This document shows, in pieces, positions 1,842-54,979 of a stretch of DNA of 64,000 nt. The DNA lies in NCBI GenBank assembly GCA_047967505.1, contig CM106538.1. One strand, 5' to 3'. Numbering within the stretch: position 1 is the first letter of the stretch; each line of letters begins with the position of its first letter. This stretch comes from Dipteris shenzhenensis (lineage: Eukaryota). The notes under the pieces were generated by a model, which did not search any database, had not been told where the DNA came from, and saw nothing but the letters and a program-made list of their open reading frames with translations. The translations under genes were made by a program, and so were the position numbers.

Positions 1842-1971
1842 GTTATACTGTTTGTAATGTGGTGCTATTTCACATGCAACAGGATGGAAGGGTGCACAGT
1901 TCTTGAATTAGATGTTATACTGTTTGTAATGTGGTGCTATTTCACATACAACAGGATGGAAGGGTGCACAG
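1842..1971. repeat. Direct duplication of about 58 bp (period 72)
   Basis: GTTATACTGTTTGTAATGTGGTGCTATTTCACAT(G/A)CAACAGGATGGAAGGGTGCACAG at 1842 and 1914. Confidence 0.9.
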
Positions 1972-2009
1972 GGAATGAGATTTGTCCACAGTGGTCTAGA
2001 ACTTGCGGA

Positions 2010-2848
2010 TCTCTTTAAGTGCCTTCATGCCTAATTTCTTGCACCTCTTAATTTTTGGGGGACCCTGCACCCAGCCTATGGACATGGCTCCATGGCCGCT
2101 TGTCCACTTTGAACTTCTTTCACCTCTCCTCCCTTGCAACCTCCCCTTCAGACTCCTCTTCTTGTGTCTGGTGGGTCTGTCATGCCGAGGTGGCCTCTCT
2201 CGCCTAGGGGTCTTCTTTGTCCTTGTTCACTTTCCCTTTTGGTGAGGTTGTGAGTTGGGGGCTGATGCTCTTGCTTAGCTCGTACTAGAGGCTCCTCATA
2301 TGTGAAAATCTTGAGGCACAAAGGGTTGATGGTTCTCTTTCGTGTGGTCTACTTGGTTGGAGGATTGGGGCCAAGGTTCATGATCTACATTGTGGCCCCT
2401 TTAATCTCTCCATCTCCTCGCTTTGACTTTCTTGCTCCCCTTGTTAGTCTAGATGCTCCATGCTAGGACCCCAAGGAGGAGGGAGGGGTAATTGATCACG
2501 ATTGATTGGACTATTTTGTCCCTCTTGGGAGAACTTTCTACTTCCATAGTTAGTTGTGTGGAAGGACTGAGAGGACCCCTAATCATGCTCGGATCCCTCA
2601 TTGTGCCAAGATCCCTCATTGTGATGATGAGATCCCTGGGATCCCCTATGAGAGTTGGATGGTTGGGACTCATGTTGCTGGGAGTCTTGATGAAGAGAAC
2701 TACATTCAGATGCCCGCTGATCATTGCCCAGTTGGCCATTGGGGCTCGTAGTGTGTTCAGAGTCCATGTAGTTGTGAGGAGGAGAGTGGGTAGCATCTAA
2801 ATGGCGGCATCTAGTGGGTCTAGCAGCAGGTTGTTTAACTTGTGCCAT
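2010..2848 (-). pseudogene. Low-complexity accessory ORF remnant, probably transposon cargo
   Basis: ATG at 2848 just downstream of an AAACCCTAA/TATA-like AT-rich segment; short internal repeats (HNEGS); broken by stops; no recognisable domain. Confidence 0.3.
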
Positions 2849-8825: not shown

Positions 8826-9179
8826 TGTGAAGAGAGTGGGAGAGAAGGAAGGAGTCTCACTAGTAGCTTTATCACATACACAATGAGGGAATAAACACAA
8901 AGGTGGGGGCTGAAAAATAGTTTTCCTCTTCTTAGTTGTGAAAGCCAAAAGAACTCTAAGTACAAAAGAATAGGTGAACCCTATATGTGGGTCTCAAACC
9001 AAACCTAGCTAACTAAGGTGGCATACTAATTGAGCCACTAACTAGAGTACATAAAGATAGCTATCATCTAGCTATTATTCATGGGCAGTGTACCAACCGC
9101 ATTTGCAGCTAACAAATATGTGACATAAATGCACAACGGTTACCCTGGCATATCACAAGTGGAGCTCAATATATCAACA
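8826..9179 (-). repeat. LTR copy A (about 354 bp)
   Basis: TGTGAAGAGAG...TCAACA; highly similar to 13359-13712 and 16852-17209. Confidence 0.9.
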
Positions 9180-12100
9180 CTCCCCCTCGAGCTCAATCCC
9201 AGGTCTCTGAACTTGCGTAGCTTCTCTATACCCAATGCCTTCATGATTATGTCAGCAACTTGATCCTCTATGCTGACATAAACTAGATCAATAAAACCTA
9301 CTAGAACCTTCTTCTGCACATAGTGATAATGCACCTCAATGTGCTTTGTTCTAGCATGATAGACTGGGTTATTTGCTAAGTGTATACTGCTCATCTTGTC
9401 ACAATAAATGACAAGTGGCCCATCTGTAGACTGATGCATATCATAAAGTAGCTTATGCAACCAAGTTGCCTCACATACAACCATTGCTACACCCCTGTAC
9501 TTAGCCTTTGTGCTCGACAAGACAACTTTAGCTATTTCTTGCTGCTCCAAGTGACTGCAGCACTCCCAAAAGAGAACACATATCCACTAGTAGATTGTCT
9601 ATCAGAAATACTACCAGCCCAATCAGCATCAGTGTATCCTACATCCAAATGCGGTTTCCTTGAAGCCTGCATAAAATGACTTACCAAACCAATATCATAG
9701 CTCAAATCTAGCCTGGTAATAGTCATATAAATCAAACTTCCTACTATGCATCTGTACATAGTAGGGTCTTCCAGAAGCTCACCTGCATCTGTGCTCGGCT
9801 TCACATTCTGCTCTAAAGGAACTGAAATAGGCTTACAGCCTATCATCCCATATTTGGATAGAATGTCCAATCCATATTGCCTCTGCAAGAGCGATATCCC
9901 ACTTGTGGATCTAATCACATCAATGCCCAAGAAGTAACACAGCTCTCCCAAATCCTTCATCTCAAACTTCTGCCTCAATAGCACTTTCACATGAAGGATA
10001 TCTTCATCACTGTCACCTGTGATGATCAAATCATCAACATAAATGACAAGTAGCATAATACCTGTCTCTGTTTTTCTCACATAAGATGAAAAATCTGCCT
10101 TGGAAATCTGAAAGCCAATAGTGACACTTTATTGTCCTATCTTGTCAGACCATGCTCTGGGTGCTTGCTTCAAGCCATACAAGGCTTTCTTCAATCTGCA
10201 AACAAAACAGCATGAACATAATCTGGTGGCTGCTTCATATAGACCTCTTCCTGCAAATCACCATGCAAGAAAGCATTCTTTACATCCTTCTGATGTAAAG
10301 ACCATCCCTTTGATTTAGCCATAGCAATGACTACTCTTACGGTTGCCATCCTTGCAATTGGACTGAATGTTTCTCATAATCAATGCCATATGTCTATGCA
10401 TACCCCTTGATAACTAATCTTGCCTTGTATCTGTTCACAGAACCATCTGCATTGTGCTTTACCTTATAAACCCACTTGCAGCCAATTGCATTCTTGTCTT
10501 TAGGCAAAGGCACCAATTATCATGTAGCATTTCTTCCAAGGCATCCATTTCTTCATCCATGGCTTTCTCCCATTTTTCTTTTCCCATGGCTTGCTCAAAA
10601 GAAGTGGGTTCTGGTTCATGTATCACTTTGACCATATAGGCATAGTGAATGGCTATAAATCCATCATATTTCAGCCTATCCACAAAATACCTAGCTCTAG
10701 TAGACGTGTGCAAAATAGGCTCACTACTAGGTGCTCTCAAAACATCCCTTGTCTTCCTTACTCCAGGTGTAACAATGGAAAGAATACCCAATTCATCATC
10801 AACGCTATGCTCTGAGCCACTAGATTCACCATCCACATAAGAGTGACCTGCATTCACATCAACCATGGGCTGATCTACTTTCTCTTTTCCTTTTCGTAAT
10901 ACTTGCATACCACTATCTGCATTGCTTGGAGGAGATCCTCTTGATCTCAATCTACCTATCCATGGCGAAGTATGTGAACCACTTCTAGAAGACACTATAG
11001 GTCCACCAATATTTTGTGATTGCTGCTATGAATTCTGTGCAGCATTACCATTTTGTGCATCTACATCATCAATCACATTTACTGGTTTATACTAGCTGCT
11101 CATCTCATCAGAAACATCTCTGCTCACTATAAACTAAGGAAAACAAGGGTTATAGCATCTATACCCTTTCTGCTGCAAAGAATAACCAATAAAGATGCAC
11201 TTCTCAGCTTTTGGATCCAACTTGGATCTCAACTCATCTGGCACATGAACATAGGCAATGCAACCAAAAACTTTCAAATGAGAAATATCTGGTTTCCTAC
11301 CAGTATACCTCTCCTCTGGTGTCACGCCATGTATTGTTGCACTAGGAATCGTGTTCATTACATAGACTGTTGTGGCAACTACTTCAGCCCAATAATAATG
11401 TGACAGGTCTTTTTCATTGAGCATGGCATGAGATACCTCTCCAATATGCCTATTTTTCCTTTCTATAAGTCCATTTTGTTGTGGGGTATGACTGCATGAT
11501 TATTGCTGCTTTATGCCGTGCTCCTGCAGGAAACTTGCAAACTCATTTGAGAGGTACTCTGCCCCTCCATCTGACCTTAGGCATTTTATTTGTAGGCCTG
11601 TTTCTTTTTCAACCATAGCTTTAAAAGCTTTGAAATGCCCAACACTTCACTTTTCTTTTTCATAAAATACACCCAAACTTTTCTGCTATAGTCATTAATA
11701 AAAGTGACAAAATAATGACAGCCTCCAATAGATGTAGCTTTAGTATTCCACACATCAGAGTGAATCAATTCCAATGGCCTCTTACTCTCTTGAACATGTC
11801 TAGGAAATGGTTTCCTTGCCTATTTTCCAAATTGATAGGCTTCACATACCTTATGGATTTTTGCAGTTACCTTGAACTTAGGCAATCCTGTAACAATATT
11901 TTGGGCCTGCATTAATTTAAGTCGCTGTACATTAACATGACCAATGCATTTATGCCAGATATCAATATCGGCAACTACACCGGTCCCATGTGCAAACATT
12001 GCTACACTCAACTCAGGCATGTCCACATCCAACATAAACATCATGCCCTTCTTCTTCACTTTTGCTATCAAGCAACATTTATTTTTCATATTCTCAACAA

Positions 12101-12574
12101 AGCATCCATGAGGATTAAATCTGACCTGCAAGCCTTGCTCAACCATTTGACCAATAGAAACCATGTTCTTGGTGATATTCGGGACATGAAATACATCAGA
12201 CAGGTATTTCTTTTTTCCATCTTGCATAGATAAAGGAATTTTACCAATCTACACAATAGGATGTGTAGTATCATCACCAGTCTCCACAAATCCTGGTCTT
12301 TCCATTTTCTTTACATCTTGCATCCATTCTACATGACCTGTCATGTGGCTTGATGCACCTGAGTGAATATACCACACATCATTGCTTTGTTCTACACTTG
12401 TCATAGAATTTGTCATGTGCTACACCATAAACAGATGCTCATTTCTGTCATCACCCTATCTACTAGAGGATGCATAATTGCCTTGCTGCCATTTTCCAGT
12501 CATGATGTCATTTTGCTTTTTATAGCAGTCTCTAACCATATGACCCATTTTACCACCGTAGTAGCATTCAATAG
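8826..12574 (-). mobile_element. Ty1/Copia copy A: 3' LTR 8826-9179, PPT, then RH, RT, INT, PR and the gag zinc knuckle; 5'-truncated
   Basis: [41 protein letters not shown] and CYYGGKMGHMVRDC motifs; PPT AGGGGGAG at 9180-9187; many stops and frameshifts. Confidence 0.95.
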
Positions 12575-12661
12575 AATACTCAAACACATATATAAATGAA
12601 TGAAAAATCAGAATAGGGTGGTTCTACACCCACCAAAAACTTGCGTGGCTCTCTGTTTCTC
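12575..12661 (+). mobile_element. Internal piece of the LTR family seen at 633-820, in opposite orientation
   Basis: AATACTCAAACACATATATAAATGAATGAAAAA...GGGTGGTTCT...TGGCTCTCTGT is the reverse complement of about 677-759. Confidence 0.85.
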
Positions 12662-12689
12662 TAGAAGATTTCAGCTATCAACTGGACCA

Positions 12690-13325
12690 AGATTAAGATC
12701 CTTGGTACATTAGCAACGGTGCATCATCTCACATGACAAATCATCAAGAATGGTTCACAGAGTTGAAACCATTAGAAGATCAAAAGAATGTCATCTACAT
12801 AGCACATAATACATAGAATCTAGTTCAAGGGATAGACATTATCCCTATGAACAATTTCACTAGTACGAAAGGATTGATGAAAGATGTACTCTACGTTACA
12901 AAGCTCAGCAAAAACCTTTTTTCAATAGGTCAAATGACGGAACACAACTATTGAGTCATCTTCGACGGAGATGAATGCACTATCAGAGACAAATCTAGAA
13001 GATTTCAGCTAGTAGGAAAAGGTGTCAAGGAAGGATGCTTGTATAGAATACTAGCTACAGTACCAGATTTGCATGCCATGTTAGCTCAACTACAACAGAT
13101 GCCACTATTTGCAAAATGGCACAAGAGATATGGTCATGTCAATTTCAAGAGCTTGCTAGATCTCAGGAATTAGAATATGGCAATCGGGATTCCTAAGCTA
13201 CAGTTTCTTGGAAAAGTTTGCAAAGCATGCTGCTTTGGCAAACAAAAGCGAACCAACTTTGGTAGAAGCACCTCTTGAGCACGAGATATTCTTGATTTGA
13301 TACATGCAGATGTATGGGGTTATGC
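12690..13325 (+). mobile_element. Ty1/Copia fragment of a different family (protease, GAG-pre-integrase, start of integrase)
   Basis: WYISNGASSHMTNHQEWF, KWHKRYGHVNF, ACCFGKQ and LDLIHAD motifs on plus. Confidence 0.8.
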
Positions 13326-13358
13326 CTAGCATTAGGAAAAAAAGGGAGCTCATTTTGG

Positions 13359-16300
13359 GGTCGAAGAGAGTGGGAGAGAAGGAAGGAGTCTCACTTGCAG
13401 CTTTCTCACATACACAATCAGGGACTATACACAAAGGTGGAGGCTGAAAACAATTTTCCTCTTCTTAGTTGTGAAAGCCAAAAGAACTCTAAGTACAAAA
13501 GAATAGGTGAACCCTATATGTGGGTCTCAAACCAAACTTAGCTAACTAAGGTGGCATACTAACTGAGCCACTAACTAGAGTACATAAAGATAGTTGTCGT
13601 CCAGTTATTATTCATGGGCGGTGTACCAACCGCATCTGTAGCTAACAAGTCAGTGAGATAAATGCACAACGGTCACCCTCGCATATCACGAGTGGAGCTC
13701 GATATCTCAACACTCCCCCTCAAGCTCAATCCCAATTTCTACACACCAAGTAGGTCTGTGAACTTGCGCATCTTCTCTGCACCCTATGCCTTTGTGAATA
13801 TGTCAGCTACCTGATCCTCTGTGCTGACATAAACTAGATCAATAAAACCTACTAGAACCTTCTCCTGCACATAGTCATAATGCACCTCAATGTGCTTTGT
13901 TCTAGCATCATAGACTGGGTTATTTGCCAAGTGTATAGTGCTCATGTTGTCACAATAAATGACAACTGGCCCATCTGTAGACTGATGCATATCATAAAGT
14001 ATCTTATGCAACCAAGCTAACTCACATGCAGCCAATGCTGCACCCTTGTACTTAGCCTCTATGCTCGACAAGGCAACTGTAGGCTGTTTCTTGCTGCTCA
14101 AAGTGACTGCATCACTCCCAAAAGAGAACATTAATCCACTTGTAGATCGTCTATTAGAAATACTACCAGCCCAATCAACATCAGTGTATCCATGCAACTG
14201 TATCTGAACCCTAGTCTCATAAAATACTCCATACTGCAATGTGGACTTCACATACCTCAGTATGCGTCTAGCCGCATCCAAATGCGATTTCCTTGGAGCC
14301 TACATAAACTGACTTACCAATCCAACACATAGCTCAAATCTGGCCTGGTAATAGTCATATAAATCAAACTTTCTACTATGCGTCTGTACATAGTAGGGTA
14401 TTCCAGAAGCTTACCTGCATCTACACTCAACTTCAATTCTGCTCCAAAGGAACTGAAATACGCTTACAGCCTGTCATCCCATATTTGGATAGCATGTCCA
14501 ATCCATATTGCCTCTGCAAGAGTGGTATCCCACTTGTGGATCTAATCACCTCAATGCCCAAGAAGTAACACAGCTCTCCCAAATCCTTCATCTCAAACTT
14601 CTGCTTCAATAGCATTTTCACATGAAGGATATCTTCATCACTATCACTTGTGATGATCAAATCATCAACATAAATGACAAGCAGCATAATGCCTTTCTCT
14701 GTTTTTCTTACATAAAGTGAGAAATATGCCTTGGAAATTTGAAAGCCAATAGTGACAAGATACTATCCTATCTTGTCAGACCATGCTCTTGGTGCTTGAT
14801 TCAAGTCATACAAGGCTTTCTTCAACCTACAAACAAACTCAGGATGAACATCATGAACATAACATGGTGGCTGCTCCATATAGACCTCTTCCTGCAAATC
14901 ACCATGTAAGAAAGCATTCTTTACATCCATCTGATGTAAAGACCATCCCTTTGATGCAGCCATAGCAATGACTGCTCTTACGGTTGCCATCCTTGCAATT
15001 GGACTGAATGTTTCTTCATAATCAATGCCATATGTCTGTGCATACCCCTTGACAACTAATCTTGCCTTGTAGCTGTTCATAGAACCATTTGCATTGTGCT
15101 TCACCTTATAAACCCACTTGTAGCTAATTGCATTCTTGTCTTTAGGCAAAGGCACCAATTCCCATGTAGCATTTGCTTCCAAGGCATCCATTTCTTCATC
15201 GATGGCTTTCTACCATTTTTCTTTTCCCATGGCTTGCTCAAAAGAAGTGGGTTCTGGTTCATTATCACTTTGACCATATAGGCATAGTGAAGCATTGTAA
15301 ATCCATCATATTTCAGCATATCCACAGGATACCTAGCTCTGGTAGACGTGTGCAAAATAGGCTCACTACTAGGTGCTCTCAAAACAGCCCTTGTCTTCCT
15401 TACTCTAGGTGTAACAATAGAAGGAATACCCAACTCATCATCAAGGCTATGTTCTGAGTGACTGGATTCACCATGCACATCAGAGTGACCTGCATTCACA
15501 TCAACCATGGGCTGATCTACTTTCTCTTTTGCTTTTCGTGATACTTACATACCACTATCTGCATTGCTCTGAGGAGATCCTCTTGATCTCAATTTGCCTG
15601 TCCATGGCGAAGTATGTGAACCACTACTAGAGGACACTATAGGTCCACTAATATTTTGTGATTGCTGTTGTGAATTCTATGCAGCATTACCATTTTGTGC
15701 ATCTACATCATCAATCACATTTACTAGTTTATACCAGCTGCTCATCTAATAAAAAACAACATCTCTGCTCACTGTGAACTTACGAGTAGAAGGGTTATAG
15801 CATCTATACCCTTTCTCCTGCAAAGAATAACCAATAAAAATGCACTTCTCAGCTTTTGGATCCAACTTGCATCTGGCACATGAACATAGGCAATGCAACC
15901 AAAAACTTTCAAATGAGAAATATCTGGTTTCCTACCAGTATACCTCTCCTCTGGCATCATGACATGTATTGTTGTAGTGGGAGTCCTGTTCATTATGTAT
16001 AGTATTGTAGCAATTGCTTCAACCCAATAATAATCTGGCAGGTCTTTTTCATTGAGCATGGCACGAGATAGCTCTCCAATATGTTTGTTTTTCCTTTCTG
16101 CAAGTCCATTTTGCTATGGGGTATGACTACATGAATATTGCTGCTTTATGCCATGCTCCTGTAGGAAACTTGCAAACTCATCTGAGAGGTACTCTCCCCC
16201 TCCATCTGACCTTAGGCATTTTATTTGCAGGCCTGTTTCTTTTTCAACCATAGCTTTAAAAGCTTTGAAATGCCCGAATACTTCTTTTTTCTTTTTCATA

Positions 16301-16587
16301 AAATACGCCCAAACTTTTTCTATTGTAGTCATCAATAAAAGTGACAAAATAATGACAGCCTCCAATAGATGCAGCTTTAATAGTCCACACATCAGAGTGG
16401 ATTAATTCCAATGGCCTCTTACTCTCTTGAACATGTCTAGGAAATGGTTTGCTTGCATGTTTTCCCAATTGACAGGCTTCACATACCTTATGTATTTTTG
16501 CAACCTTGAACTTAGGCAATCCTGCAATAATATTTTGGGCCTGCATTAATTTAAGTCATTGTACATTAACATGACCAATGCATTTAC
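13359..16587 (-). mobile_element. Ty1/Copia copy B: 3' LTR 13359-13712, PPT, RH, RT, INT; 5'-truncated
   Basis: [35 protein letters not shown] and HSDVW motifs; same family as copy A. Confidence 0.95.
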
Positions 16588-16589
16588 AC

Positions 16590-16851
16590 AAACACTCATG
16601 TGACTCCCCTAGATGCACACATGCACCATAGAGCAAGCCCTTGATCATACTTATCCCAACAATGTATTATGAAAGTTTCAAGATGGCTATGAAAGAGTTT
16701 ATGCCATTAATGGTGGTAAAAGCATGGGGGGAGTCGCACATTATGCATTATATTATGGTACTCTTGGAACCATTGTAATATTTAGCACTTGCTTTATAAA
16801 TAGTTTTTGCTGCTCTTGAAATGATTCTCATCATGTCTGTAGCATATTCTC
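16590..16851 (+). pseudogene. Fragment of a second RAG1/Transib-like transposase
   Basis: YYESFKMAMKEFMPLMVVKAWGESHIMHYIM|gt..ag|HLLY matches YYDRFKIALGDFISLMVEAWGESHITHYI|gt..ag|HILY at 3522-3675 (minus), with the same intron position. Confidence 0.75.
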
Positions 16852-18325
16852 TGTGAAGAGAGTGGGAGAGAAGTAAGGAGTCTCACTTGCAGCTTTCCCA
16901 CATACACAATGGGGGAATACACACAAAGGTGGAGGCTAAAAACAATTTTCCTGTTCTTAGTTGTAAAAGCCAAAAGAACTCTCTCTCAGTACAAAAGGAA
17001 TAGGTGAACCCTATATGTGGGTCTCAAACCAAACCCAGCTAACCTAGGTGGCATACTAATTGAGCCACTAACTAGAGTACATAAAGATAGCTATCATCCA
17101 GCTATTATTCATGGGTGGTGTACCAATCGCATCTGCAGCTAACAAGTCGGTGACATAAATGCGCAACGTTCACCCTGGCATATCATGAGTGGAGCTCGAT
17201 ATCTCAACACTCCCCCTCGAGCTCAATTCCAATTCTTGCATACCAAGCAGGTCTCTGAAGTTGCGTAGCTTCTCTATGCCCAATGCCTTCATGAATGTGT
17301 CAGCTACATGATCCTTTGTGCTAACATAAACTAGATCAATAAAACCTACTAGAACTTCTCCCGCACATAGTGATAATGCACCTTAATGTGCTTTGTTCTA
17401 GCATGCTAGACTGGGTTATTTTCCAAGTGTATACTGCTCATGTTGTCACAATAAATGACAACTGGCCCATTTGTAGACTGATGCATATCATAAAGTAGCT
17501 TACACAACCAAGCTACCTCACATGTAGCCATTGTTGCACCCTTGTACTCAGCCTCTGTGCTCGACAAGGCAACTGTAGGCTATTTCTTGCTGCTCCAAGT
17601 GACTGCAACACTCCCAAAAGAGAACACATATCCACTGGTAGATCATCTATCAGAAATACTACCAGCCCCAGTGTATCCATGCAGCTGTATCTGAACCCCA
17701 GTCTCATAAAATAGTCCATACTGCAATGTGGACTTCACATACCTCAGTATGTGTCTAGCCACATCCAAATGCAGTTTCCTTGGAACCAGCATAAACTGAC
17801 TTACCAACCCAACATCATAGCTCAAATTTGACCTAGTAATAGTCATATAAATCAAACTTCCTACTATACATCTATTCATAGTAGGGTCTTCCAGAAGCTC
17901 ACCTGCATCTGCGCTCAACTTCACATTCTGCTCCAAAGGAATTGAAATATGCTTACAGCTTGTCATCCCATATTTGGATAGCATGTCCAATCCATACTGC
18001 CTCTATAAGAGCCATATCCCACTTGTGGATCTAATCACCTCAATGCCCAAGAAGTAGCACAGCTCTCCCAAATCCTTCATCTCAAACTTCTGCTTCAATA
18101 CCATTTTCACATGAAGGATATCTTCATCACTATCACCTGTGATGATCAAATCATCAACATAAATGACAAGCAGCATAATGCCTTTCTCTGTTTTTCTCAC
18201 ATAAAGTGAGAAATTGGCCTTGGAAATCTAAAAGCTAATAGAGACAAGATACTGTCCTATCTTGTCAGACCATGCTCTAGGTGCTTGCTTCAAGCCATAC
18301 TAGGCTGTCTTCAACCTGTAAAGAA
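16852..18325 (-). mobile_element. Ty1/Copia copy C: 3' LTR 16852-17209, PPT, RH and part of RT; 5'-truncated
   Basis: Same LTR and PPT as copies A and B; YVDDL; breaks off within RT at about 18325. Confidence 0.95.
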
Positions 18326-18329
18326 ACTC

Positions 18330-19103
18330 ACCTTCCCCTCAGCCTGCCCCTCAACCTTCCCCTCAGCCTTCCCCTCAGCCTTCCCGTCGGCCTTCCCCTC
18401 CCCATGAGAGCACTCCCCTGATCGAGCAAAATATATTTGAGAATCTCCCTTCCCTTCAGCCTCCCCCTCCCCATGAGAGGACTCCCCTGCACAAGCAAAA
18501 TGTATTTGATAAACTCCCTAATATAGAGAGGCTTCCTGAGGGCCAACAAACTACTAGGAAGATCACAATCTTCCTCTCTTAGTGAAGAGGGTAAAGCAGA
18601 TGCCGAGGAATCCCCATCCCAAAGAAGGACAAAGCTCAAGACATCCGTGAGAGGGGGATTCAGAGGAGGATCAACATAAAGAAGAGAAGCGTAAGAAATT
18701 CAAGGCAGACAGGAGGCCATCGAACCATGTTCGGGTACCTGTAAAGCCTCCACCAAGAATCAGGAAGCCATACAAAACAAAGGCAGGAGCACGGGTCCTA
18801 AGGTAGATCAAACAGATGTAGAAGACCACTGACAACCTAATCTCCCGTGCTCCCTTCCAATGTGTGGTATGGGAGATAGCACAAGGATACAAGGACGATG
18901 TGTGATTCAGCACAGGATCTATGGGGGCACTCCAAGAGGCTACGGAGCAAGTGACCATTGCTTTGTTTGAGGACACCAACTTGTGTGCCATCTATGCAAA
19001 GTGTGTCACGATCATGGACAAGGGACATGGCTTTGCCGAAGCGGCTATGGGGTTACCCAAGGTTGAAGCCTGAGATTCTCTTACAGCCCACCCTTATGAC
19101 TTA
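18330..19103 (+). pseudogene. Divergent histone H3-fold pseudogene with a long Pro-rich/charged N-terminal extension
   Basis: From 18762: [84 protein letters not shown](+1)[10 protein letters not shown], colinear with H3 [50 protein letters not shown]...[30 protein letters not shown]. Not listed in the ORF track because of the stops. Confidence 0.9.
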
Positions 19104-19605
19104 GACCACCCTCTGCCCTTGAAGACACTAGATTCTTGTATATGAGGCCCAGGGCCAATCTTTTTAATAAAATATATCCACATTCTCTACACTATCGCAT
19201 TGTTGTGTATTCTCCATGTTTATGACTGAAATTACTATTCATTTCAATGTAAGTTTGGAATTCTATCAAATCTTGAAGGAATTTCACCATCGCATAGATA
19301 TCCAAGATGTTGCTAGGAGCCTAGAAAGCCTAAAACCCGCCACGGCGTGAATTTGGACATTCAAATTTGTGCCATGGCAGGTTTTAGGCTTTCTAGGCTC
19401 TTGGTGACATCCCAAACACTTTTCCCTTCTGCGTCATGATGAAATTTCTCCAGGATTTGATAGAAATGAACTTTCGATACCCAGAATTGGTGAAAATGAT
19501 ACTAAAATATTATGAATTCATGATGAGCAATGATAACTTAAAACATATAATAAAGACATGTCGTTAAGTATCAATTGAAATATATGTTTATATATACAAA
19601 AGGCC

Positions 19606-21079
19606 TCACAGGCTATCTTTCTTCTTGGCTAGTTTGAGTACATTGAGAATAGGGGTCTTTGAATCCCCTAGTGGATTCCTAGATATAAACCTAGCCACAA
19701 CAGCACTAACATCCTCATCTCCTACTACCAAAGACATAGCTATTGCCGTCAATGCCCTACCATAAATGTTCGATCCAAAGGCATTGATAGCAGCCAGGTA
19801 GTGTACCAAAATGACTTTGTCGGCATTCCGAGTAATGTTGGAGTATCTGATAGCTCGAGTTTGATAGTACGCGACAATGCCTTGCACTTCAATAGCTTTG
19901 AAGGACCTCGAGGAGAAAATTTGTTGTGGAAGACCACGATGTGCTCTGCGACTTTGCCAAGGTAATGGGCCAAAGAATGATCTCGCCCAAATGCACTACG
20001 AACATTACCCCATCGAGATGAGAATTCATCAAGCTCAAACGCATCGTGTAACAATTCAACAAGCATTAGAATACCGACAACAAATTATACTGAAAGAACA
20101 TCAAAATAAAAAATATTGTTCGAACCTACCACTATAGCATCGTTGGCTTCTATCCCTTCCTCATTTGCAATGTTGATGGAACCAGGTGCTGATGCTCCAT
20201 TTGGGAGGTGGATGCTTTCTCCTGACCTGTGTTGGAGGTAGAAGCTTCTACATGAGAGGGATATGCATCATATATGGACATGTCTGCATCCCTCATTGAA
20301 ACCAGCGTCATCAAGAGAAACTCTTCCATTGTCTGGTCTTTAGAACCAAAAACCTCGGGATCTTTGACACTTGTGTCAACATCGAACCTAGATAGGACTC
20401 CAAGTGTCTCATCCTCTCATAGTCCAAAAAGAACCTCTATGTCATGGAGGAATACGTACTCTTCTCCATCGATGATGAGGGGGGAAGGGGACCATAATTT
20501 TGATTCTAGGTCAGTGGTCTCCGATGTAGATTCTTGCTTTACTAGGGGCTCTTGAAGTAGGCTCAATGCTTGAGCTGCTTCTAGCTCCTCTCTTGCATCA
20601 TCAAGACTCTCTTCCATGTATATGTCCGAGTCTAGTCTAGGGATGAGCAGATCAACAGTTCTACTAGAGGGGGGGCTAGACGATGAGGCTTCTTCCTCTA
20701 AATTTCCTTCTTGGAGAAGGAAGATGAATGTCATCTCCCATGAAAGGAATTTTGTGCCTATATTTCCCGTGATCCCCACGTCTAGGATGTCTTTAACTTT
20801 GACCATCCTAAACCCTTCCTCTGTAAGGTTGTCACAAAAGTGGGCCAAGTGCTTTACAAACTTGGGTTCCTCTAGGAACAGATACTTTATGTAATCTATG
20901 GGAAACCATCTCTTTGAAGAGTGGTCAAGTGTATAAACAAAATTTGAGAAATTATCTTGCATGTAGAGGATGAGATCTAAGAAATAATCCTTGGCTTGCA
21001 TATATGTGCCTAAGACATCTAAAGTCCTATCAAACACTAGAAATAGCCCTTCCTCACACAATCTGCAAATGCAATTCAT
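19606..21079 (-). pseudogene. Uncharacterised ORF remnants (220 aa at 20417-21079; frameshifted 19606-20100), probable transposon cargo
   Basis: Long protein-like open frames downstream of a TATATAT/AACCCTAA-type upstream segment at about 21230; no domain recognised. Confidence 0.4.
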
Positions 21080-21338
21080 GAGATGAAGTAATGGAACATA
21101 GTTCTAATTGAATCTAGGGCAAATAGCAGCAGCAGCTGATGGAGGGAGTAACTTTTGAGGGGGGGAGTTTCTATGGCTCTCTAAACGTGAAAGTGAGAAT
21201 GTGATGTAAAAAGGGCTCTAACCCCTTAATATATATCAAAACCCTAAAAATTGAAATTAATCATAAAATCCCCAAATTTTTTGAAAAACATTTACCATGA
21301 ACTGAAAGGAGATAACATTAAAAGAAATAACTTTTAAT

Positions 21339-21950
21339 TTAATTGTCCATCATCTTTTGAAGCAATAACCAGGATTTGACAAACAAAAAATTAAATGCTA
21401 CACTAATCTTCAAAGTGCAATCCATGTCTTTAAGTTGTGGTGGTGCAATGGTTTGTAGACGGCCATAGCTTGATGATATCGTTGGAGTGATATATGTTGC
21501 ATTATACCAATACACATTCTTCATTTGCAAGGAGGCCAACTTCTCCCCGACATGCATTTGCTTACATAAATCCTCATGAATCGCAGTGAGCTTGCCTATG
21601 AATGATTCAACTAGTTCCCATTCCTTGAAGTCCGAAGGGAAAACATCTGCCACCATGAATAAGAGCTCTTAGAAACCAAACACAAAATTTCCAAATGGAC
21701 TCATTACACTTATAGGTGAAAAAGGTACATAGATGGAAAGGCTCACAGTGTGATGGTATCCTAGATTGATTGAATGATGGAGGAAACTGCATATCTTTTC
21801 CCGTGTAAACATGTTGCACTTTTGCAAGCCATCCTTTCTTCCCAAACTTGAACTTCAAGATGTGCCCCTTCCACTCATGCAAGATCTCACCTCTCTTGCT
21901 CTTGGGAAGCTTATGTGGACCTTTGGCCAATCCTTTCATCACTATCCAAT
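21339..21950 (-). pseudogene. Spliced gene remnant with BAH-like motifs
   Basis: EWKGHILKFKF...AKVQHVYTGKDM, then a probable GT-AG intron (about 21647-21746), then DVFPSDFKEWELVESFIGKLTAIHE...VYWYNATY; resembles BAH ELF.S...D.I...SI.GKC.V. Confidence 0.35.
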
Positions 21951-22140
21951 CATTTATGTTATACACAGAGCAAATCCAACAGAGGCACAAAAGAGGGAGA
22001 AGGAGAGGGATAGAGCAGCAGCAATAGAGGCACAGGAGAGGGAGAAGGAGAGGGACAGAGCATCTCCAATAGAGGCACAAAAGAGGGAGATGGAGAAGGA
22101 TAGAGTAGCACCAATAGAGGCACAGGAGAGGGAGAGGGTG

Positions 22141-22142
<2 letters not shown>

Positions 22143-22226
<84 letters not shown>
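22143..22226. repeat. (GA)n microsatellite, preceded by three degenerate ~45-bp repeats (21980-22140)
   Basis: About 40 GA units; AGAGGCACA(A/G)(A/G)AGAGGGAGA recurs. Confidence 0.95.
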
Positions 22227-22369
22227 GGAGCTGTAGCAAGCAGGCCAGAGCAGGAGGGAGCAGAGAAAGAGGGGGAACAGGGAAAATGCATGGGATTTGG
22301 CAGGCTAGACTAGAACACTGGGGGGCAAAATCCCTATAAAGAGGGAGGGGAGAAGGAAAATTCGCCAGA

Positions 22370-22659
22370 AGGGCCCTACCATCCCATTGAAGGTAGTTTT
22401 GGGCTCATGTGGGGGAGGTGCACCTCATAGGAGGGTCAAACATGGGTTAAGAGGGTAGGGATGGTTTGGGTGGTCCCTAGTGTAAGGGGAGCAATCAATA
22501 GGGGCTATCTACTACAGGCCTTCCCATCCTCCACCTCAACATACCATTGCCCCACACCTTCTAGCACTTTCATTGGTATACCTCAAATCACTCTCTAATC
22601 CCTTGAAATTATGAAACACTAATTGGAGGCTCTTTTGAGACCCCATTTCTCCCCTAATG
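22370..22659 (-). mobile_element. Putative DNA-transposon terminus, copy 2
   Basis: GAGGCTCTTTTGAGACCCCATTTCTCCCCTAATG ends at 22659; also shares GGCCC(T/C)..C..CATTGA with about 5888-5905. Confidence 0.5.
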
Positions 22660-23109
22660 AATATCTGACATCCAAACATGCAACCTCATAGAGAATGTGG
22701 GTAGTGCATTGGCCATTGTGAAAAAAAAAAAACTCCAAAGATTAGTTGTCTCTAAAGAACAGTGCATTATCTATTATGATGATTTATAATCAAGGCATTC
22801 ACTTATCAAAGGTCTCACAAGTCCTTAAAGTTCCAAGTTGTAGCTTGTATCATGCAATATTTAGAATGCATGCCTAGGCTGATGATGTTAATGGGTCTTG
22901 TTCTAAGTTGAAAGTAACACCACACTAGCCCATTCATCAATGAAACAAAGGAGATTGTACCCTTATTTTGGGAGGCTAAGATAGGTGTTTCCGCAATAAT
23001 GATGTTTTCCAAAAAAATAGCCGACAAAAGAATCACATGAAGCACCCAGTATGCCTACACAATGAGCCTTATGTACAAACTTGTAAAGTGCATTATACAT
23101 GAAGCACAT

Positions 23110-28189: not shown

Positions 28190-30946
28190 CATAACCTGCT
28201 GCTGAGTCTCCGAGCGCCCTGATCCTATGCAAGTATGTAACTGACTGAAATGCTGCATCTAGCGCTAGGGGTGTAGCTCCGAACTCTGCGAGCATAATCT
28301 GATGCGGTACCGTGGCTTCGCTCTGATCAATCTGGAGAACATGATGATCTGTAACCTCTCTACTCATCTCCAATCTGCAACACTGAGATCTCCTACCCAA
28401 AAGGGGCTAGCATACATGGCTGTAGGTCTCACCAGTGTATCGAAAAGTAAGGACTTCGTGTCGGGATGCTGAAAATGTGACTGTGCACATTGCCTCTCGA
28501 GAAGAGCCAAGGCGGCATACCCTCTACTGATCCTATCTCGTGCTGCATGCGTCATGGTGAAGACTGGACCTCTAAATGTGGCACCCAAATATGTATACTC
28601 CCTGACTAGCTCCACCTCCTACCCATCAAATGTGAAAGAGAACTCGCCTCTCCTATAAACCTGGTATGACGTGTTGAAGACCATGACTTTGGTCTTCCCA
28701 AGGTTTACAGACAACCCTCTGTCCTGACAAAAGTTGTGGAGTGCATGGAGATGTGCCTGTAAACCCGGTTGGGAGGAAGAAATAAGAACCACGTCATCTG
28801 CATAGAGGAGAATCGGTATCATGGATCCTACCAGTAAAGAACCTGTACCACCCATCGTCTATATGTACATCTCTAACTCATCGATATAGAGACCAAAGAG
28901 TGTCGGAGACAAAGGACACCCCTGCTTCACCCCTATCATACTGCGTACTTCCCCCGATAGCCCCGCCCGTGTCCTGACTCTACCTGTGACTCTCTCATAC
29001 AAGGCCATGATCGCCCATTGAATCTCCCCACTGAATCCCAAGTCACGAAGTCGCTGGAAGAGTCTGAAACGCGGCACAGTGTCAAATGCCTTTCTGAAGT
29101 CCACGAAGCAACAATAGAGCCGTTGCTTACGTGACTTGGCCTCCTCAATCAAAGCCCTGAGTGTGAAGATATGATCTAGAGTTGAGTGCTCTGCACGAAA
29201 TCCTGCCTGCCCTCTAGCTCTCATACCTGTCGCCTCGGCATGGTCATTTATATGTCCTTCTAGAATGGTCGCATAAATCTTGGCCATGACATGGCCAATC
29301 ATAATGGTCCTATAGTTCGATGCCTCCAAAGGATCCCCCGACTTGTGTATGGGTACTATAGTATTTTCTAGCCAACTAGGTGGAAGACCTGTACAAATGG
29401 ACTCGTTAAAAAGACGGGAGAGGACTATAGCTAAGGCATCAATCCCATGGATTACATACTCCGCTTGCAATCCATCATGGTCCTTAGCTCTCCTAGTCTT
29501 CAAACGATGAACTGCTGCTCGGACACTACTGGATGAGAATAAGGCAGAGGAGGTGGGTCTAGGCATATGGGATAAGTCGATCTGTGGCTGGTCTGGAATA
29601 TCATATAAAGTGGAAGTATAGGCAAGCCAAACCTGCGGGTCTGTAAGAGGAGTTTGAGATTTCAAGTGAAGGAATTTCTTCTAGAATTCCTTGGAATCAC
29701 AGCTAAAAAGTAAACTTCTCAGCTCCTCCTCATTCCGGGCTAGAAATTGGCGCTTTTTGCGTCACACCAAACGCTTGTTACAACTCTTCTTGGTCTCAAT
29801 GAGGAGGGGAGACTTCTCCTGTGTCTCAAGGCAAAGCTTCCTGTGGAGTTCTTTACACTCCTCATCATACCATCCATTACAAGGCACAAGACTGACTGGT
29901 GGAGGACTGGATGTGTGGCAAGTGACGAGGAAGGACTTGTGGGCTGCCGAGATGATGGAGGTATGTACAAGGTCCCACCGATCCTGTGTGGAGGATAGGG
30001 CATCGAGAAGGTGCGGATGGAGAAGACTACTCGGGTGCTGGCTATAAATATCATTGAACTGGTGGTCAAAATGAACCTCATAGTATGGCTGACGCTCATG
30101 ATGTCTAGAAGGGGGGGCATGAGGAATCTGGGTAAGAATAAAGTGCAGACATGCATGATCCGCTCAAGGCATAAGAGGGTCGACTGTGAGGTTATGTACA
30201 AAAGGGATTAAAGTCGGGGGACCCAAGACGTAATCAATGACGCTCGTACCACCACCTGCGAAGGGAAAACATGTGGCTGTGGATGAATGCGGCCACTGTC
30301 GAAGTCCATTATAAATGACCATGCCATGCGATGAGAGAAGCTCCAATAGGTGATGTCCCTGATCTGTCACCTCTACCCCTCTATCTGAAGATAAGCATGG
30401 AAAACTCTCATCTGGGGCAGCTAGAACTTTAAAGACTGGATCCTCAGCAAAGTCCAAAATCTATGCCTGTCTGTCTGATGTCCTCGTGTTGAAGTCTCCT
30501 AAAAGGATGACCTCTCCGCAGCGTGAGTACTCCAATACATCGGCTGACAAATCCTCAAAAGGTGACTGTCCTGGTCCATCTGAGGCATAACGAGTCTGTC
30601 TCAGGGGAAAGTAGCATACTGCAATAAAAAAGTCTCTCAGGCGGGGTCTTCTGATCCGTACCCAAAGATATCTGGCCTGATGGTCTCTCCTCACGACTGT
30701 GAATATCGATCTGAGATGCTCTCTATAAAGAACTGCCACAACGCCAGATCCTCTGACTCCTCCTGATCGTCTAGTCTGCTGTTGAAAGACAAACTCCCAG
30801 GCATACTCTGTCACCTGTGGCAAGCCTCTCTCTGGGCTCTCATGGGTCTCTGTAAAGAAGACGATGTCCTGATCAAAAAAGGCCTCTCGTAAGTTGCCAG
30901 GCTGAGCTGTGAGGGAACCATTACAGTTCCAAACTGTGAAACTCAA
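28190..30946 (-). pseudogene. LINE ORF2 (endonuclease and reverse transcriptase)
   Basis: Consecutive ORF pieces separated by single TAG/TGA stops (30458-60, 28856-58, 28616-18) and a few frameshifts. Confidence 0.9.
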
Positions 30947-31054
30947 GCTATCTGGTAGGCTACATGTCCCATAGGCCTCGTGTCGTCAACTGTGGACTCC
31001 AGCCGGTCTAGATCACATAGCTCCTATCAAAAGTCTACCCTCTCTGATCACGGC

Positions 31055-33222: not shown

Positions 33223-34373
33223 TCACAAGTCTTGGAGCTGGAAGTAGCCCACAAGCTCATTCCAGCATTCACAAATCGATTGGTGCTTGCAGAGTGCATC
33301 GCTTCCTTCCATCATCAGCCACAAATCATGATTAATGTGATGGTTGACTACTTCGTCAGCAGATTGTTCGTGCGTGCCTGTGGTTATCAGATTGCTGCAT
33401 CCAATATTGATCTGTTCCTTGGAGTCGTGTGCGCAGAAATTAGCACTGATATTGCTGCCGCAGAACGTTAATTCGCTAGACGGTTCTGCAATCTGCACCT
33501 GCTTAGTTGATGAATCGGTGCTCGTTGCTACCGTTATTTTATTGGTTATGCGATCGATCCACATTGCCCATTCCGATGCTATTGAGACTTGATTCACGGT
33601 CCTTGCGGAATTAATTGCTAGGGCCTCTTTCGCATTGATCTGGGTGTCCGGAGAGATAATCCACTCTCCAGAAGTACCCTCAGCATCAAAGAACGATGTG
33701 AACACAGTTCGCAGCACGGGAATCTTCGCATGACAAACAGGGTTCATCCCTCTGCTGCCATACTCTTCTTTCTCAATCGCGCATGGGGTTTCACTCTTAG
33801 TTGATTCTGTTTTATCGATGCTAATTGTCGTCCTCTGTTTCTGTTCTTGTCTCCTCATGAAAATGTGCCACATGTTCTTCACATCGTTGTCTGTTCTCCC
33901 CACAAGATGCGCAGCTATCTTGGTCCATCTGTTGTGAGAAAGAACATTTGAGGCAGCGATGTAGCAGTATTCATTGAGTGTCATCAGTTAAAAGTGGAAT
34001 CTCATCAATCATAGCAAGTACACTCTTCCATACCAATACCTGTTTCCATAGAGTTTTTGCAGCTCATATACATGCATCGCTTCCTCCATCGAAAATTTCC
34101 CACGCTTTATGCCTGGTCTCAAGTGGTTCATCCAACGTCTCCTACAGCTCTTTCCGCATCTTCCCAGACCTGCTCAGCATCGCAACTGTAAGCCATTTCC
34201 AAAGGAACCTATTCAATCGGCTATGACAGAGATATATATATATATCTAGCAAGGATCCTCTCACCCGCTTTACGAGCTATGTCGCTCCAAGTGAGGTGAG
34301 TTCGCGGCTCGGCCAGGATTCTCAGCAGCTTTTCATCCTCTTCGGGTGACCAAAGAGCTCTCATGCTTACCAT
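33223..34373 (-). CDS. R2R3-MYB transcription factor, 3 exons (34373-34265, 34169-34040, 33928-33223), 314 aa, apparently intact
   Basis: [17 protein letters not shown]...[38 protein letters not shown]...[29 protein letters not shown] introns at the canonical R2R3-MYB positions with the typical 130-bp exon 2; 945-nt open frame. Confidence 0.93.
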
Positions 34374-47642: not shown

Positions 47643-48950
47643 ATGTAGCATTTTCTTTTTGGTAGAATTTGATTAAATTTTAGTTTATAAGAAAAATTAT
47701 AAAATGCATTTTAATGTTTTTTTGAAATTTATGAATTACGAGATTTTTTATTTAAAATGTGAAAATTAAAATTTTTTTTTAAATAGAGCTTTTTTTAGTA
47801 AATAAAAAAACGTTCATATTAATAATTATAAAATATTTATAAATTTGAAATGCATTTGTATTTTTTTTTTTTTTTAAATTACGACATTTATAATTTAAAA
47901 TGTGAAAATTTTAAATTTAAAAAACGTAATTTAAAATTTTAGTTTATAAGAAAAATTATAAAATGCATTTTAATGTTTTTCTGAAATTTATGAATTACGA
48001 GATTTTTTATTTAAAATGTGAAAATTAAAATTTTTTTTAAAATAGAGCTTTTTTTAGTAAATAAAAAAACGTTCATATTAATAATTATAAAATATTTATA
48101 AATTTGAAATGCATTTGTATTTTTTTTTTAATTTTTAAATTACGACATTTATAATTTAAAATGTGAAAATTTTAAATTTAAAAAACGTTTAATGAGGCAT
48201 TTTTTATTCAAAATGTGAAAATGTTCAATATTTCTGTTTTTTTTATGTAGCATTTTCTTTTTAGTAGAATTTAATTAAATTTTAGGTTAAAAGAAAAATA
48301 ATAAAAAATTTCTAAATTTCAAATGCAATATAATGTTTTTTTGAAGTTTATGAATTACGACATTTTTTATTTAAAATGTGAAAATGAAAATTTTTTTTCA
48401 AAATAGAGCTTTTTTAGTAAATAAAAAAATGTTCATATTAATAATTATAAAATATTTATAAATTTGAAATGCATTTGTAAAATTTTTTTACATTTTTGAA
48501 TTACGACATTTATAATTTAAAATGTGAAAATTTTTAATTTAAAAAACGTTTAATGAGGCATTTTTGATTCAAAATGTGAAAATGTTCTATATTTCTGTTT
48601 TTTTTATGTAGCATTTTCTTTTTGGTAGAATTTAATTAAATTTTAGTTTATAAGGAAAATTATAAAAAATTTCTAAATTTATAATGCATTTTAATGTTTT
48701 TTTGAAATTTATAAATTACGACATTTTTTATTTAAAATGTGAAAATGATTTTTTTTTTTTAATAGAGCTATTTTTATTAAATAAAAAAACGTTCATAGGA
48801 ATAATTATAAAGTATTTATAAATTTGAAATGCATTTGTAAATTTATTTTTTTTTTTGAATTACGACATTTATAATTTAAAATGTGAAAATTTTTAATTTA
48901 AAAAAGTTTAATGAGGCATTTTTAATTCAAAATGTAGAAATGTAAAAATT
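47643..48950. repeat. AT-rich tandem repeat, ~360-bp unit, about 4 copies (first two shortened)
   Basis: ATGTAGCATTTTCTTTT at about 47643, 48245 and 48607; the AATAATTATAAAATATTTATAAATTTGAAATGCATTTG block occurs four times. Confidence 0.92.
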
Positions 48951-50708: not shown

Positions 50709-51281
50709 ATAATATTGAAAAGGCTTAATTATTTTCTCAAAGTTCTCGCTTTAAAAGGTCTGTAGTGTGAGCCCGCTCTCTTTTTTAATGTGTAGTCCGA
50801 GAAATACTAGATGCGCCTTGCTTGTGTATCGTTCAAAGTAATGTATTAGGTATCCTTCTATCTCCTCCATATCTATTGCAAACCCAAGGCAGTAAAGCAT
50901 TCAAAGAAGGTCTTAATAACCAAACCTCTCCACTATCTGTCCTTAGTATAGGGGCCATTAGTGGACAATGTGGTCCTTACACCACATGTGGAAAAGTTTC
51001 ATATTGGATAAAAAGTGAAAAAAGGGAAACATATAAGGAAAAAATATTTGAGACATCTAAGTTTAAAAATGCAACAACTAGAGTGAAAAAATTCTAATCA
51101 AAATTAAGAATTATTAATAATATTGATTAATATTGAGCCACACATTTGGCCCATCTACCGGTAGGTGCATAGGATCTACCTCATCAAGGAGTACGTACAA
51201 ATAGTTTTCATTACGTAAATAGATTATAAGTCATATTGAATAGAATATTATTTTCATTACCCAAATAGAATATTAATTTCC

Positions 51282-53210
51282 ATGTGTTTTTTTTGTGCAT
51301 GCGCCAGCCAGTGCACAGGTTCTAGCACCACTATTCGTATGCAGATAGAGATGCTGAGAGCTGAGATGAGGGCACTGCAGGATGCTAGGGCACCCCCTCA
51401 CTTGGTTGCGAGCCTGGATTTAGTTATTGAGGCTCTGAGTCGATTGGACACAGTTGAGGACGTTGTGGATAGCTTTCAGGCACAGGCTGAGGCGGAGATC
51501 ACTGGTGGTGGCTTGGATTGGAGAGCCATTCGACAGTTGTTTGAGCGGGAGTCACATCACAGGGAGGCCTTGGAGGATATGTTTTGGGATGGTCACACCG
51601 AGGTGATGCGACCACGATCAGGGCTCCCCTTGCATATTTTACGGTGTAGGCACCCCATCATAGCAGCACACATTTATCCGAGATATCTTACTGCGAATGG
51701 TGGTCGATTGCCTCACAACCGCCAGATAGCCAGGTCGTTTGCCATGCAGCTTTACGCTGAGTTTGTCCTTGGTCATCGGGTGGACTACCTGGGGCGTCAG
51801 GAGCGTCAGATTGTAGGTGTTCGGCGTCGATGCGAGGGACCAGAGTTGCACACCATCCCTGCACCGGCATTGCGAGCGGTGGGAGGACAGATTAGGGGGG
51901 ATGTTCATTCAGTGGCATCATCCTTGCAGCACATGGTCTCTGCCCTATCGAGATCTATTGCGATTCCACCTCCCCCACCTCGATCATCGATGGAGCATCC
52001 CACATCTACAACACCTCCCACATCTACGGTGCCTCAGCATGAGTTGGAGGCTCGAGACAGATGGATTGCAGAGTTGGAGGCATTGTTGGCCGAGTCTAGG
52101 GACGAGGTTAGTTATTTTGATTATGTTAGTTTATTTTTTTGTAGCATGTTTTGAACTGAAGTTTTTTGGTTAATTCTCACCATGTATGCGACATGTTTGC
52201 ATTGCAGGCACATCTATTGCGTCAGGAGATGGAGTCTCGCGTACGACTGTTGCAGACAGATTTGGAGGAGCAAAGGATTCGGACACGCATAGCATACCAT
52301 CGCACAGAGCACTATATTTTGTAGTTGAGGCATATTAGTCATGATCCGTCGCGCCATAGGATCGACCCCAGTGTGGCCCTATACCCTAATCCTCCTGTAG
52401 ATGTGCCGACTAGGATACCCATAGACGCAGTAGTCGTAGCGAGGCTTCCTACTACCACTTGTGTCCTCTGCCACGAGGACTTTGACACCGTAGGGTGGTT
52501 TGGACTAGGGTGCGGCCACATCGCACATCTCCATTGCATGACCCGCCACATGGTGGCACGTTCAGTGTGCCCTGTATGCTTTGCTGACATTGATGTGGCG
52601 ACATACAGAGGACTGTGATCTATATCCTGGTCATCGTCAGGCTGTTGATCCATTCGCCCATGTAGTCTTGACAGAGCACTATAGGGAGGAGGCACAGAGA
52701 GCGTTGTTGATGCAGGAGGGTGCGGATACATCGGTGGTTGCATCATGCATTCCACGACGCTTTTCGTATGGTGATTTCATGCCAGGTGACGAGGCACGAG
52801 CGGAGGAGGCATGCCGGATTGAGCGAGAGGCAGAGCTGCAGACATCATTGCAGCAGTGGGTGGAGCAGCAGCTAGGGCGGGGCCGAGACTAGCGTCTTTC
52901 ACATGTAGAGACGATTACTCGCGCTGGATTTGAGGCACGAGTATTTGCAGATGCACAGCTATGGGAGCTGAGACGCGCGTACATAGAGGAGGCGAGGGAG
53001 GCAGAGATGGCAGCAGTGGCGCGTGCAGCATGCCCTCCTCTTCATCAGGATGAGGCTGGCCCATCTCATGCAGGTGATGAGGCTGGCCCATCTGAGCCGG
53101 CTTTGCCTGAGGGCACACAGCGGACGGTTGGGCAGCGGGTCATACAGGAGCCACGTCAGCGTTCCACTAGAGGATCATATGTAGAGTTATCAGATTCAGA
53201 TTCAGATTGA
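51282..53210 (+). pseudogene. Spliced gene with coiled coil and RING-H2 finger, disrupted, probable transposon cargo
   Basis: Long exon to 52106, GT-AG intron 52107-52207, then CVLC-x13-CGHIAHLHC-x10-CPVC (52460-52579); in-frame TAG/TGA stops; ends VELSDSDSD*. Confidence 0.7.
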
Positions 53211-54957: not shown

Positions 54958-54979
54958 CTTTGGTGGTACGCTAACGTGT

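Follow-up and report, generated by a model that had tools for sequence, protein, structure and literature searches.

The stretch at 18500-19071 on the plus strand of the analyzed DNA (the window, 64 kb in its full length) is a long-dead, intronless pseudogene of an H3-type histone variant, denoted copy 1 below. We consider it probable that the variant was lineage-specific and belonged with a group of proteins typified by P0144, and that copy 1, now an old and non-functional relic, comes from a gene that had diverged at the protein level before it died. As a pointer, copy 1 would indicate that the lineage once possessed a strongly divergent H3 variant with a tail of its own, and seemingly unbroken relatives of this variant sit in public data without a name.

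Read from position 18558 on the plus strand, with X at the stops, copy 1 yields exactly the peptide that an earlier, sequence-only reading had quoted as lying in frame upstream of the fold, followed by an H3-type fold. The Pfam Histone profile (PF00125) matches residues 51-155 with an E value of 6.9e-19 and 68.7 bits (cut-off 26.4), and among the 174 PDB sequences of solved structures that match copy 1 at E<=1e-3, the best 60 are all H3 types. The best of these solved-structure matches, H3.3 and H3.6 (E 3.7e-24), align to copy 1 without gaps over 98-100 residues, from alpha-N to alpha-3. Given the Pfam match and the gapless alignment to solved structures, the gap-free H3 fold at 18759-19022 (plus strand) is real, and both the profile and the best matches place copy 1 in histone H3. 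The fold had also been described as complete, but for this to hold one has to read through a +1 frameshift near 19023; by our own reading of the sequence and its translations, the frameshift consists of one extra G after M-D-K. In the shifted frame, 19024-19071 encodes a 16-residue H3 C-terminus that matches the family type, with a score against P0277 that is reached by 31 of 5000 shuffles and a score against P0267 that is reached by 217 of 5000. An AATAAA, read directly from the sequence, is located at 19166-19171 on the plus strand, about 95 bp past the coding end; a run of A after it was looked for and none was found. The whole coding stretch is intronless.

Copy 1 does not retain the open frame of a functional H3 gene. 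Along with the +1 frameshift, it contains four internal stops, and a full reading has to pass through TGA 18648, TAG 18804, TAG 18819, TGA 18903, and TGA 19071, with TAG 18804, TAG 18819, and TGA 18903 lying inside the fold; a second frame change occurs near 18572. The suggestion that the stops and the replacements of arginine by cysteine or tryptophan are mostly explained by C>T decay applies to all three such arginine replacements in the fold (residues 102, 105, and 149), each being one C>T step from an arginine codon, but only to two of the four internal stops, TAG 18819 and TGA 18903, whereas TAG 18804 requires a G>T change from a glutamate codon and TGA 18648 is without a clear origin. 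The observed/expected ratio of CpG is 0.40 in copy 1 and 0.41 in the window, and TpG plus CpA are in excess, which fits long-term C>T decay of methylated DNA.

An index-free search of 1.84 billion representatives with copy 1 as the query returned 7296 matches at E<=1e-3, and word-indexed searches with the same query found nothing closer than about 50-57% identity. The top protein match, P0002 from carrot (120 bits), was rejected as the closest relative, because its score is high only through the fusion of two H3 domains in one gene model; multi-stretch proteins also occupy the top rows of the representative search. P0144 (132 aa) is a single-domain match, and its residue 2 aligns to residue 39 of the query, so that the tail is covered; it and its kin came to light in the index-free search alone. 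When P0144 itself was used as the query, 15 clusters with 76-100% identity were retrieved, all of them from ENA contigs of 540-1253 bp and some holding up to 9 member sequences. The P0144-like family, as delineated here, consists of P0144, P0267-P0278, P0314, and P0382; two of its members, P0268 (189 aa) and P0269 (188 aa, with the C-terminus cut), are longer and have tails of up to about 128 residues. Some P0144-like copies are decaying: P0272 is frameshifted, and its out-of-frame tail reads TCVPSMQS, as in the alternative frame of the window; P0274 reads through its stop; and P0273, P0276, and P0277 carry changes of arginine to cysteine, histidine, or tryptophan. Because the relatives are available only on short contigs and several of them are themselves decayed, an intact parent gene under selection is something that we infer.

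Copy 1 shares with the P0144-like proteins the tail motifs RKKFK.D.RP and PP.[VI][KR][RK], derived residues of the fold, an M-D-[KR]-D motif, the extended C-terminus, a loop 1 of H3 length, and the lack of introns over the coding stretch. It differs from them in that the identity is only 45% over 123 residues, in that it keeps the canonical R82, F117, L125, and T140, among others, where the family has cenH3-like residues, and in its stops, frameshifts, and the lack of about 35 of the tail residues of P0269. A metagenome scan with the family alignment gave 133 pattern matches, two of which were confirmed, each at 41% over 41 residues and unrelated to the family. A word-based, sequence-blind search of the literature found no description of a variant with this tail, although the supplement of PMC4357034, with 230 plant H3 genes, might contain relatives. 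Separately, P0003, P0009, and P0261, from metagenome and representative records, are unrelated long-tailed H3 variants that contain the copy 1 motifs KTTDNLI.RAPF and AQGY[KQ]; since they do not have the copy 1 tail, the shared motifs are probably due to convergence.

The long N-terminal tail of copy 1 (18573-18761, plus strand, with an in-frame TGA at 18648-18650) is homologous to the tails of P0144, P0267, P0268, and P0269. In a Smith-Waterman comparison with shuffles, the copy 1 tail alone (67 residues) was aligned to the tails of these four relatives alone, giving scores of 69, 74, 95, and 79, respectively, each of which was reached by none of 2000 shuffles. The nine control tails, from five plant cenH3s or cenH3-like proteins and four long-tailed H3 variants, gave scores that were reached by 10 to 465 of 500 shuffles, none of them significant. 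With tblastn, residues 33-173 of P0268 match 18588-19022 in a single frame (E 5e-30). Given this homology, copy 1 has the family-specific N-terminal tail, that is, the variant's own, and there is no fusion to a non-histone N-terminus, as had been proposed; the methionine of "MPRNPH" is internal to the copy 1 protein and is not its start. A word search with residues 1-82 of copy 1 produced 9 candidates, none at E<=0.01.

The PSPQ repeats, which had been described as lying in frame further upstream, originate from a 12-bp simple repeat (CTCAGCCTTCCC x 6.2) at 18327-18400 that begins exactly where the copia homology stops. This repeat is in another frame than the fold and upstream of the probable ATG at 18500, and hence is probably non-coding. 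A 69-bp tandem duplication (18379-18519, plus strand; two units, 86% alike) spans the presumed start-codon region. The candidate ancestral ATG, at 18500-18502 on the plus strand, comes from our own reading against P0269, and this ATG together with the loss of one base just after it would fit the M-L-F start of that protein. In another frame than the fold, the N-terminal segment at 18505-18571 (VFDKLPNIERLPEGQQTTRKITI) weakly resembles residues 2-27 of P0269 (LFEGLGDIQDLGSTVPIKQTARKSVI), KQTARKS included, with a score that is reached by 274 of 5000 shuffles; within it, 18545-18571 reads QQTTRKITI and aligns weakly to the N-terminus of P0269 that carries IKQTARKS. If this reading of the start is right, about 35 tail residues of P0269 are absent from copy 1 at about 18572, the site of the frame change.

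These alignments bear on the modification sites of the variant. P0269 keeps an internal KQTARKS (IKQTARKS), that is, the K4 and the R8-K9-S10 context; a KAARKS (K27) motif was not seen in the tails of the P0144-like family. Copy 1 contains no intact ARTKQTARKS, in agreement with the sequence-only reading, and might at best carry a decayed relic of KQTARKS. Considering that the family has this motif internally, the absence of ARTKQTARKS needs qualifying, and the conclusion drawn from it, a histone unable to carry canonical silencing marks, is not upheld, P0269 having kept the motif and putative relics of it being found in both copy 1 and the second copy described next.

A family HMM run on the six-frame translation of the 64-kb window matched two places only, copy 1 (iE 1.2e-36) and copy 2 (5e-8 and 6.3e-6), the next match having an iE of 0.74. 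Copy 2 (1842-2384, minus strand) is a decayed and truncated relic of the same variant in which the N-tail, alpha-N, and alpha-1 are spread over three frames; it stops past the start of loop 1 and is without alpha-2 and alpha-3. Family members match copy 2 at 1984-2283 (minus strand), across stops and two frame changes, and a KQTARKS-like stretch at 2384-2319 (minus strand) is 45% identical to residues 9-30 of P0269 (E 1e-3 in a small search). Repeat finding revealed a local 58-nt duplication in copy 2 (1842-1899 and 1914-1971); no tandem repeats were found in copy 2 by TRF. The string 'PPHER', which occurs upstream of both copies, was considered as a sign of homology and dropped: it matches poorly at the DNA level (10 of 21 bases by our own count), and what reads PPHER in copy 2 is the KQTARKS-like stretch in a different frame.

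The two relics are 16 kb apart, in opposite orientations, within 64 kb of TE-rich, plant-type DNA, which would be compatible with an H3-variant gene that was captured by, or carried in, a transposon or retroelement, spread with it, and then decayed. The 15 clusters at 76-100% identity to P0144 on short ENA contigs, with up to 9 members, would fit such a passenger, as would the arginine replacements, frameshifts, and read-through among the relatives, which look like a repeated, decaying family, and the intronless state of every copy seen over the coding stretch. There is also a precedent, the H3L genes of Pyrenophora tritici-repentis, which, according to Manning et al. (2013; PMC3538342), are transduplicated on hAT elements, are flanked by terminal inverted repeats and a hAT transposase, and are near-identical to one another. 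Both cases involve multi-copy, divergent H3-like genes that include frameshifted copies, but here the copies are ancient, and element termini and a transposase were not found. Specifically, terminal inverted or long direct repeats bracketing copy 1 were not found in 18200-23000; the sole DNA match between copies 1 and 2 is 75% over 64 bp, inside the coding region, with no similarity found between their flanks; and no transposase was found beside either copy, the two open frames downstream of copy 1 having no Pfam match. The element that adjoins copy 1, a truncated Ty1/copia fragment with an RVT_2 domain (16855-18330, minus strand), runs in the opposite direction and is just cut off at the junction: its homology to the copia copies at 8826-11952 and 13363-16586 stops at 18326-18330, so that it abuts the H3 unit and ends exactly where the 12-bp repeat starts. 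With no bracketing repeats found in 18200-23000 and no flanks shared between the two copies, copy 1 lacks the marks of a transposon-captured gene of the transduplication or Pack type, and we regard carriage by a mobile element as unlikely.

The two copies and the 15 ENA clusters could, on a tentative and somewhat doubtful reading, represent an undescribed multi-copy, intronless H3-variant family with a tail of about 130 residues, an internal KQTARKS, and a fold between H3 and cenH3, which would be either a lineage-specific germline or centromere-related histone that sheds copies or a gene on a mobile element in a large plant-type genome. Should an intact, expressed member exist in the host, it would be a candidate specialized nucleosome component, germline or centromere-related, or, alternatively, would join the Pyrenophora H3L as the second known instance in which mobile DNA has multiplied a histone gene. 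Should there be no such member, copy 1 would be one more decayed plant 'H3-like' gene of a kind already catalogued.

Centromeric H3 variants (cenH3s) are distinguished by a loop 1 that is longer than in H3, by the loss of the glutamine in alpha-1, and by F-to-W and T-to-A/S replacements in the fold. The possibility that copy 1 is a processed (retrotransposed) pseudogene of the organism's cenH3 has to be weighed against these features. In copy 1 and in the relatives, loop 1 is as long as in H3, apart from a single additional residue in P0144, and copy 1 keeps the alpha-1 glutamine (Q101), F117 at the F/W position, and T140, the T in LFEDTN; the P0144-like family also keeps the glutamine but has W and A at the F/W and T positions. 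In view of the H3-like length of loop 1 and the retained glutamine, two features in which the family departs from cenH3s despite some cenH3-like residues, we do not file the variant as a cenH3. Its likeness to cenH3, CENP-A, and Cse4 consists in a long, divergent tail and several cenH3-like residues in the fold, the relatives sharing ALQEIR, IP.A.F, EIS, RW, AIQEAAE, LFEDAN, and VTLM. At the columns that split canonical H3 from seven plant cenH3s, the family agrees with cenH3 at 14, with canonical H3 at 11, and with neither at 25, whereas copy 1 is mostly canonical, agreeing with cenH3 at 4 and with canonical H3 at 14. In the phylogenetic tree, the family forms a 100/100 clade that is sister to P0279, an unnamed long-loop H3, and groups weakly with the seven plant cenH3s (63/18).

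Plant cenH3s also appear among the next-best matches of P0144, at 53-57% identity, and a feature-based comparison in the Atlas puts the cluster 'H3-like centromeric protein CSE4' nearest (score 0.92), which serves as a lead only. Retrotransposition of a cenH3 transcript would further accord with the absence of introns from copy 1 and with the presence in the window of a LINE-type element (28859-30985, minus strand) with long open frames, a reverse transcriptase (RVT_1, E 2.7e-17), and an endonuclease/exonuclease/phosphatase domain (E 1.7e-12), but the poly(A) run that would be looked for after the AATAAA is absent, and the best solved-structure match of P0267 is H3.3 (E 3.6e-29), with S. pombe Cnp1 behind (2.2e-27). 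Taken with the unlengthened loop 1, the retained glutamine, F, and T, and the mostly canonical diagnostic columns, this makes a cenH3 retrocopy decidedly improbable in our estimation.

The variant represented by copy 1 and the P0144-like family fits the heterogeneous 'H3-like' class of plants, and divergent 'H3-like' plant genes are already known. According to Cui et al. (2015; PMC4357034), members of this class have a degenerate or absent canonical N-terminus, deviate from both the H3.1 and the H3.3 signature at positions 31, 41, 87, and 90, have or lack introns, and often carry substitutions at K4, K9, and K27. Copy 1 has P, T, G, and G at 31, 41, 87, and 90 (residue number minus 33), in line with the class as PMC4357034 defines it; the members described there are near H3.1 or H3.3 in the fold, whereas copy 1 is only about 50% identical and is a pseudogene. 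By description rather than by sequence, the variant family also resembles the generative-cell H3s of Lilium, gH3, gcH3, and leH3, which Talbert et al. (2012; PMC3380720) discuss as lineage-restricted, strongly divergent histones that are not clearly separable from cenH3s in trees. The living variant would be a nucleosomal replacement for H3 with some cenH3-like residues.

Over 94 codons, copy 1 is identical to the canonical H3 consensus at 47, can be reached from it through C>T or G>A steps at 16, and is otherwise different at 31; the corresponding numbers for the family consensus are 42, 17, and 35. Eight residues of copy 1 agree with the family and not with canonical H3 (T90, N93, R97, A98, V103, S118, Q131, and D154), and for six of these a canonical codon would need two or more base changes. 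A single C>T step separates four more (S96, T119, T133, and I134) from the family residue, and copy 1 is canonical at 11 sites where the P0144-like family differs, a combination that would fit an early branch of the variant lineage. The derived residues that copy 1 has in common with the family support divergence as a protein before death. The same had been suggested from changes other than C>T in, among others, KTTDNLISRAP, STGSMG, and EQVTIA, and it gains weight from the relatives, given that these stretches contain the family-shared T90, N93, R97, A98, S118, and Q131.

Relative to canonical H3, copy 1 requires at least 62 replacement changes in 88 codons, with a transition/transversion ratio of 0.68. 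The local copia copies, which served as the neutral reference, differ by 327 transitions and 163 transversions, a ratio of 2.0, and by 36 gap events per 490 substitutions. At that rate, a fold decaying neutrally from canonical H3 should have picked up about 7.7 indels over its 88 codons; none is observed (P ~0.0004). When each codon is compared with the nearer of canonical H3 and the family, 38 changes remain, 18 of them in the C>T or G>A direction, with a ratio of 1.71; about 4.2 indels are expected from this nearer ancestor and none is seen in the fold (P 0.015), which means that either some of the copy-specific change took place under constraint as well, or the calibration is imprecise. Both calibrations are indeed rough because the copia pairs overlap and are not independent, and because replacement sites intrinsically have a lower transition/transversion ratio than all sites.

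Placement in a tree, which had been recommended as a check, gives a more equivocal picture. In the fold-only tree (37 rows, 136 columns), copy 1 falls among the canonical H3s, in an unresolved polytomy and with an end branch of 1.57; a constrained tree that joins copy 1 and the family is not rejected (AU p 0.348), and the fold is 45% identical to the family and 46-55% to canonical-like H3s. The scenario that had been named beforehand as refuting, in which a canonical H3.1 or H3.3 gave rise to an ordinary old pseudogene, the upstream frame is unrelated, and all differences are due to neutral decay, would be in keeping with this placement, with a number of stops about that left by neutral decay to 50% identity (a rough estimate, not a computed one), and with an intronless fold like that of plant H3.1 genes as characterized in PMC4357034, but we find it hardly credible in the face of a tail homologous to that of the variant family, the eight derived residues, the family-type C-terminal extension in the shifted frame, the ratio of 0.68 against a local neutral 2.0, and the missing indels.

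The history that we favor for copy 1, as a relic of a P0144-like variant gene, would begin with a parent protein of about 190-230 residues, in which a long N-tail was followed by a histone fold with the length of H3. The tail would have contained an internal KQTARKS-like motif and a lysine/proline-rich stretch (RKKFK.D.RP...PP.[VI][KR][RK]), and the fold would have gained its family-specific substitutions while still under selection at the protein level. Copy 1 would then have died and, no longer under selection, accumulated roughly 0.2 substitutions per site, in a mode rich in C>T and G>A and accompanied by CpG depletion, probably in a methylated genome. This decay would account for the four stops, the two frame changes, a deletion of about 35 codons from the tail as compared with P0269, and the 69-bp duplication at the start. 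Copy 1 is now inert, without any role.

Elsewhere in the window, the three partial Ty1/copia copies are arranged as direct repeats over 8826-18330 (minus strand) and are about 88-91% alike; the first two share internal endpoints, and the arrangement resembles the outcome of a segmental duplication more than that of three separate insertions. The segment 19261-19465, some 190 bp beyond the end of the H3 relic, is an imperfect palindrome (about 205 bp) in which one inverted repeat is nested inside another; the arms 19306-19355/19362-19411 are 82% complementary and the arms 19261-19290/19436-19465 are 87% complementary. It resembles a foldback or MITE-like insertion. Long open frames (228-321 residues) that lack a Pfam match are present at 20417-21103 (minus strand), 51240-52154 (plus strand), and 57597-59836 (minus strand) and may be unclassified transposon proteins. 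There are no Rfam matches within the 64-kb window. A 254-residue open frame at 33223-33987 (minus strand) starts with a DNA-binding repeat of the Myb-like type (PF00249), whose E value of 2.9e-5 lies right at the cut-off, and may be an exon of a host MYB gene. In two tandem arrays, units of about 290-360 bp fill about 1.3 kb (47643-48943) and units of about 165 bp fill about 2.3 kb (54976-57270), and the stretch at 48-50 kb is very AT-rich, with a GC content of 0.25.
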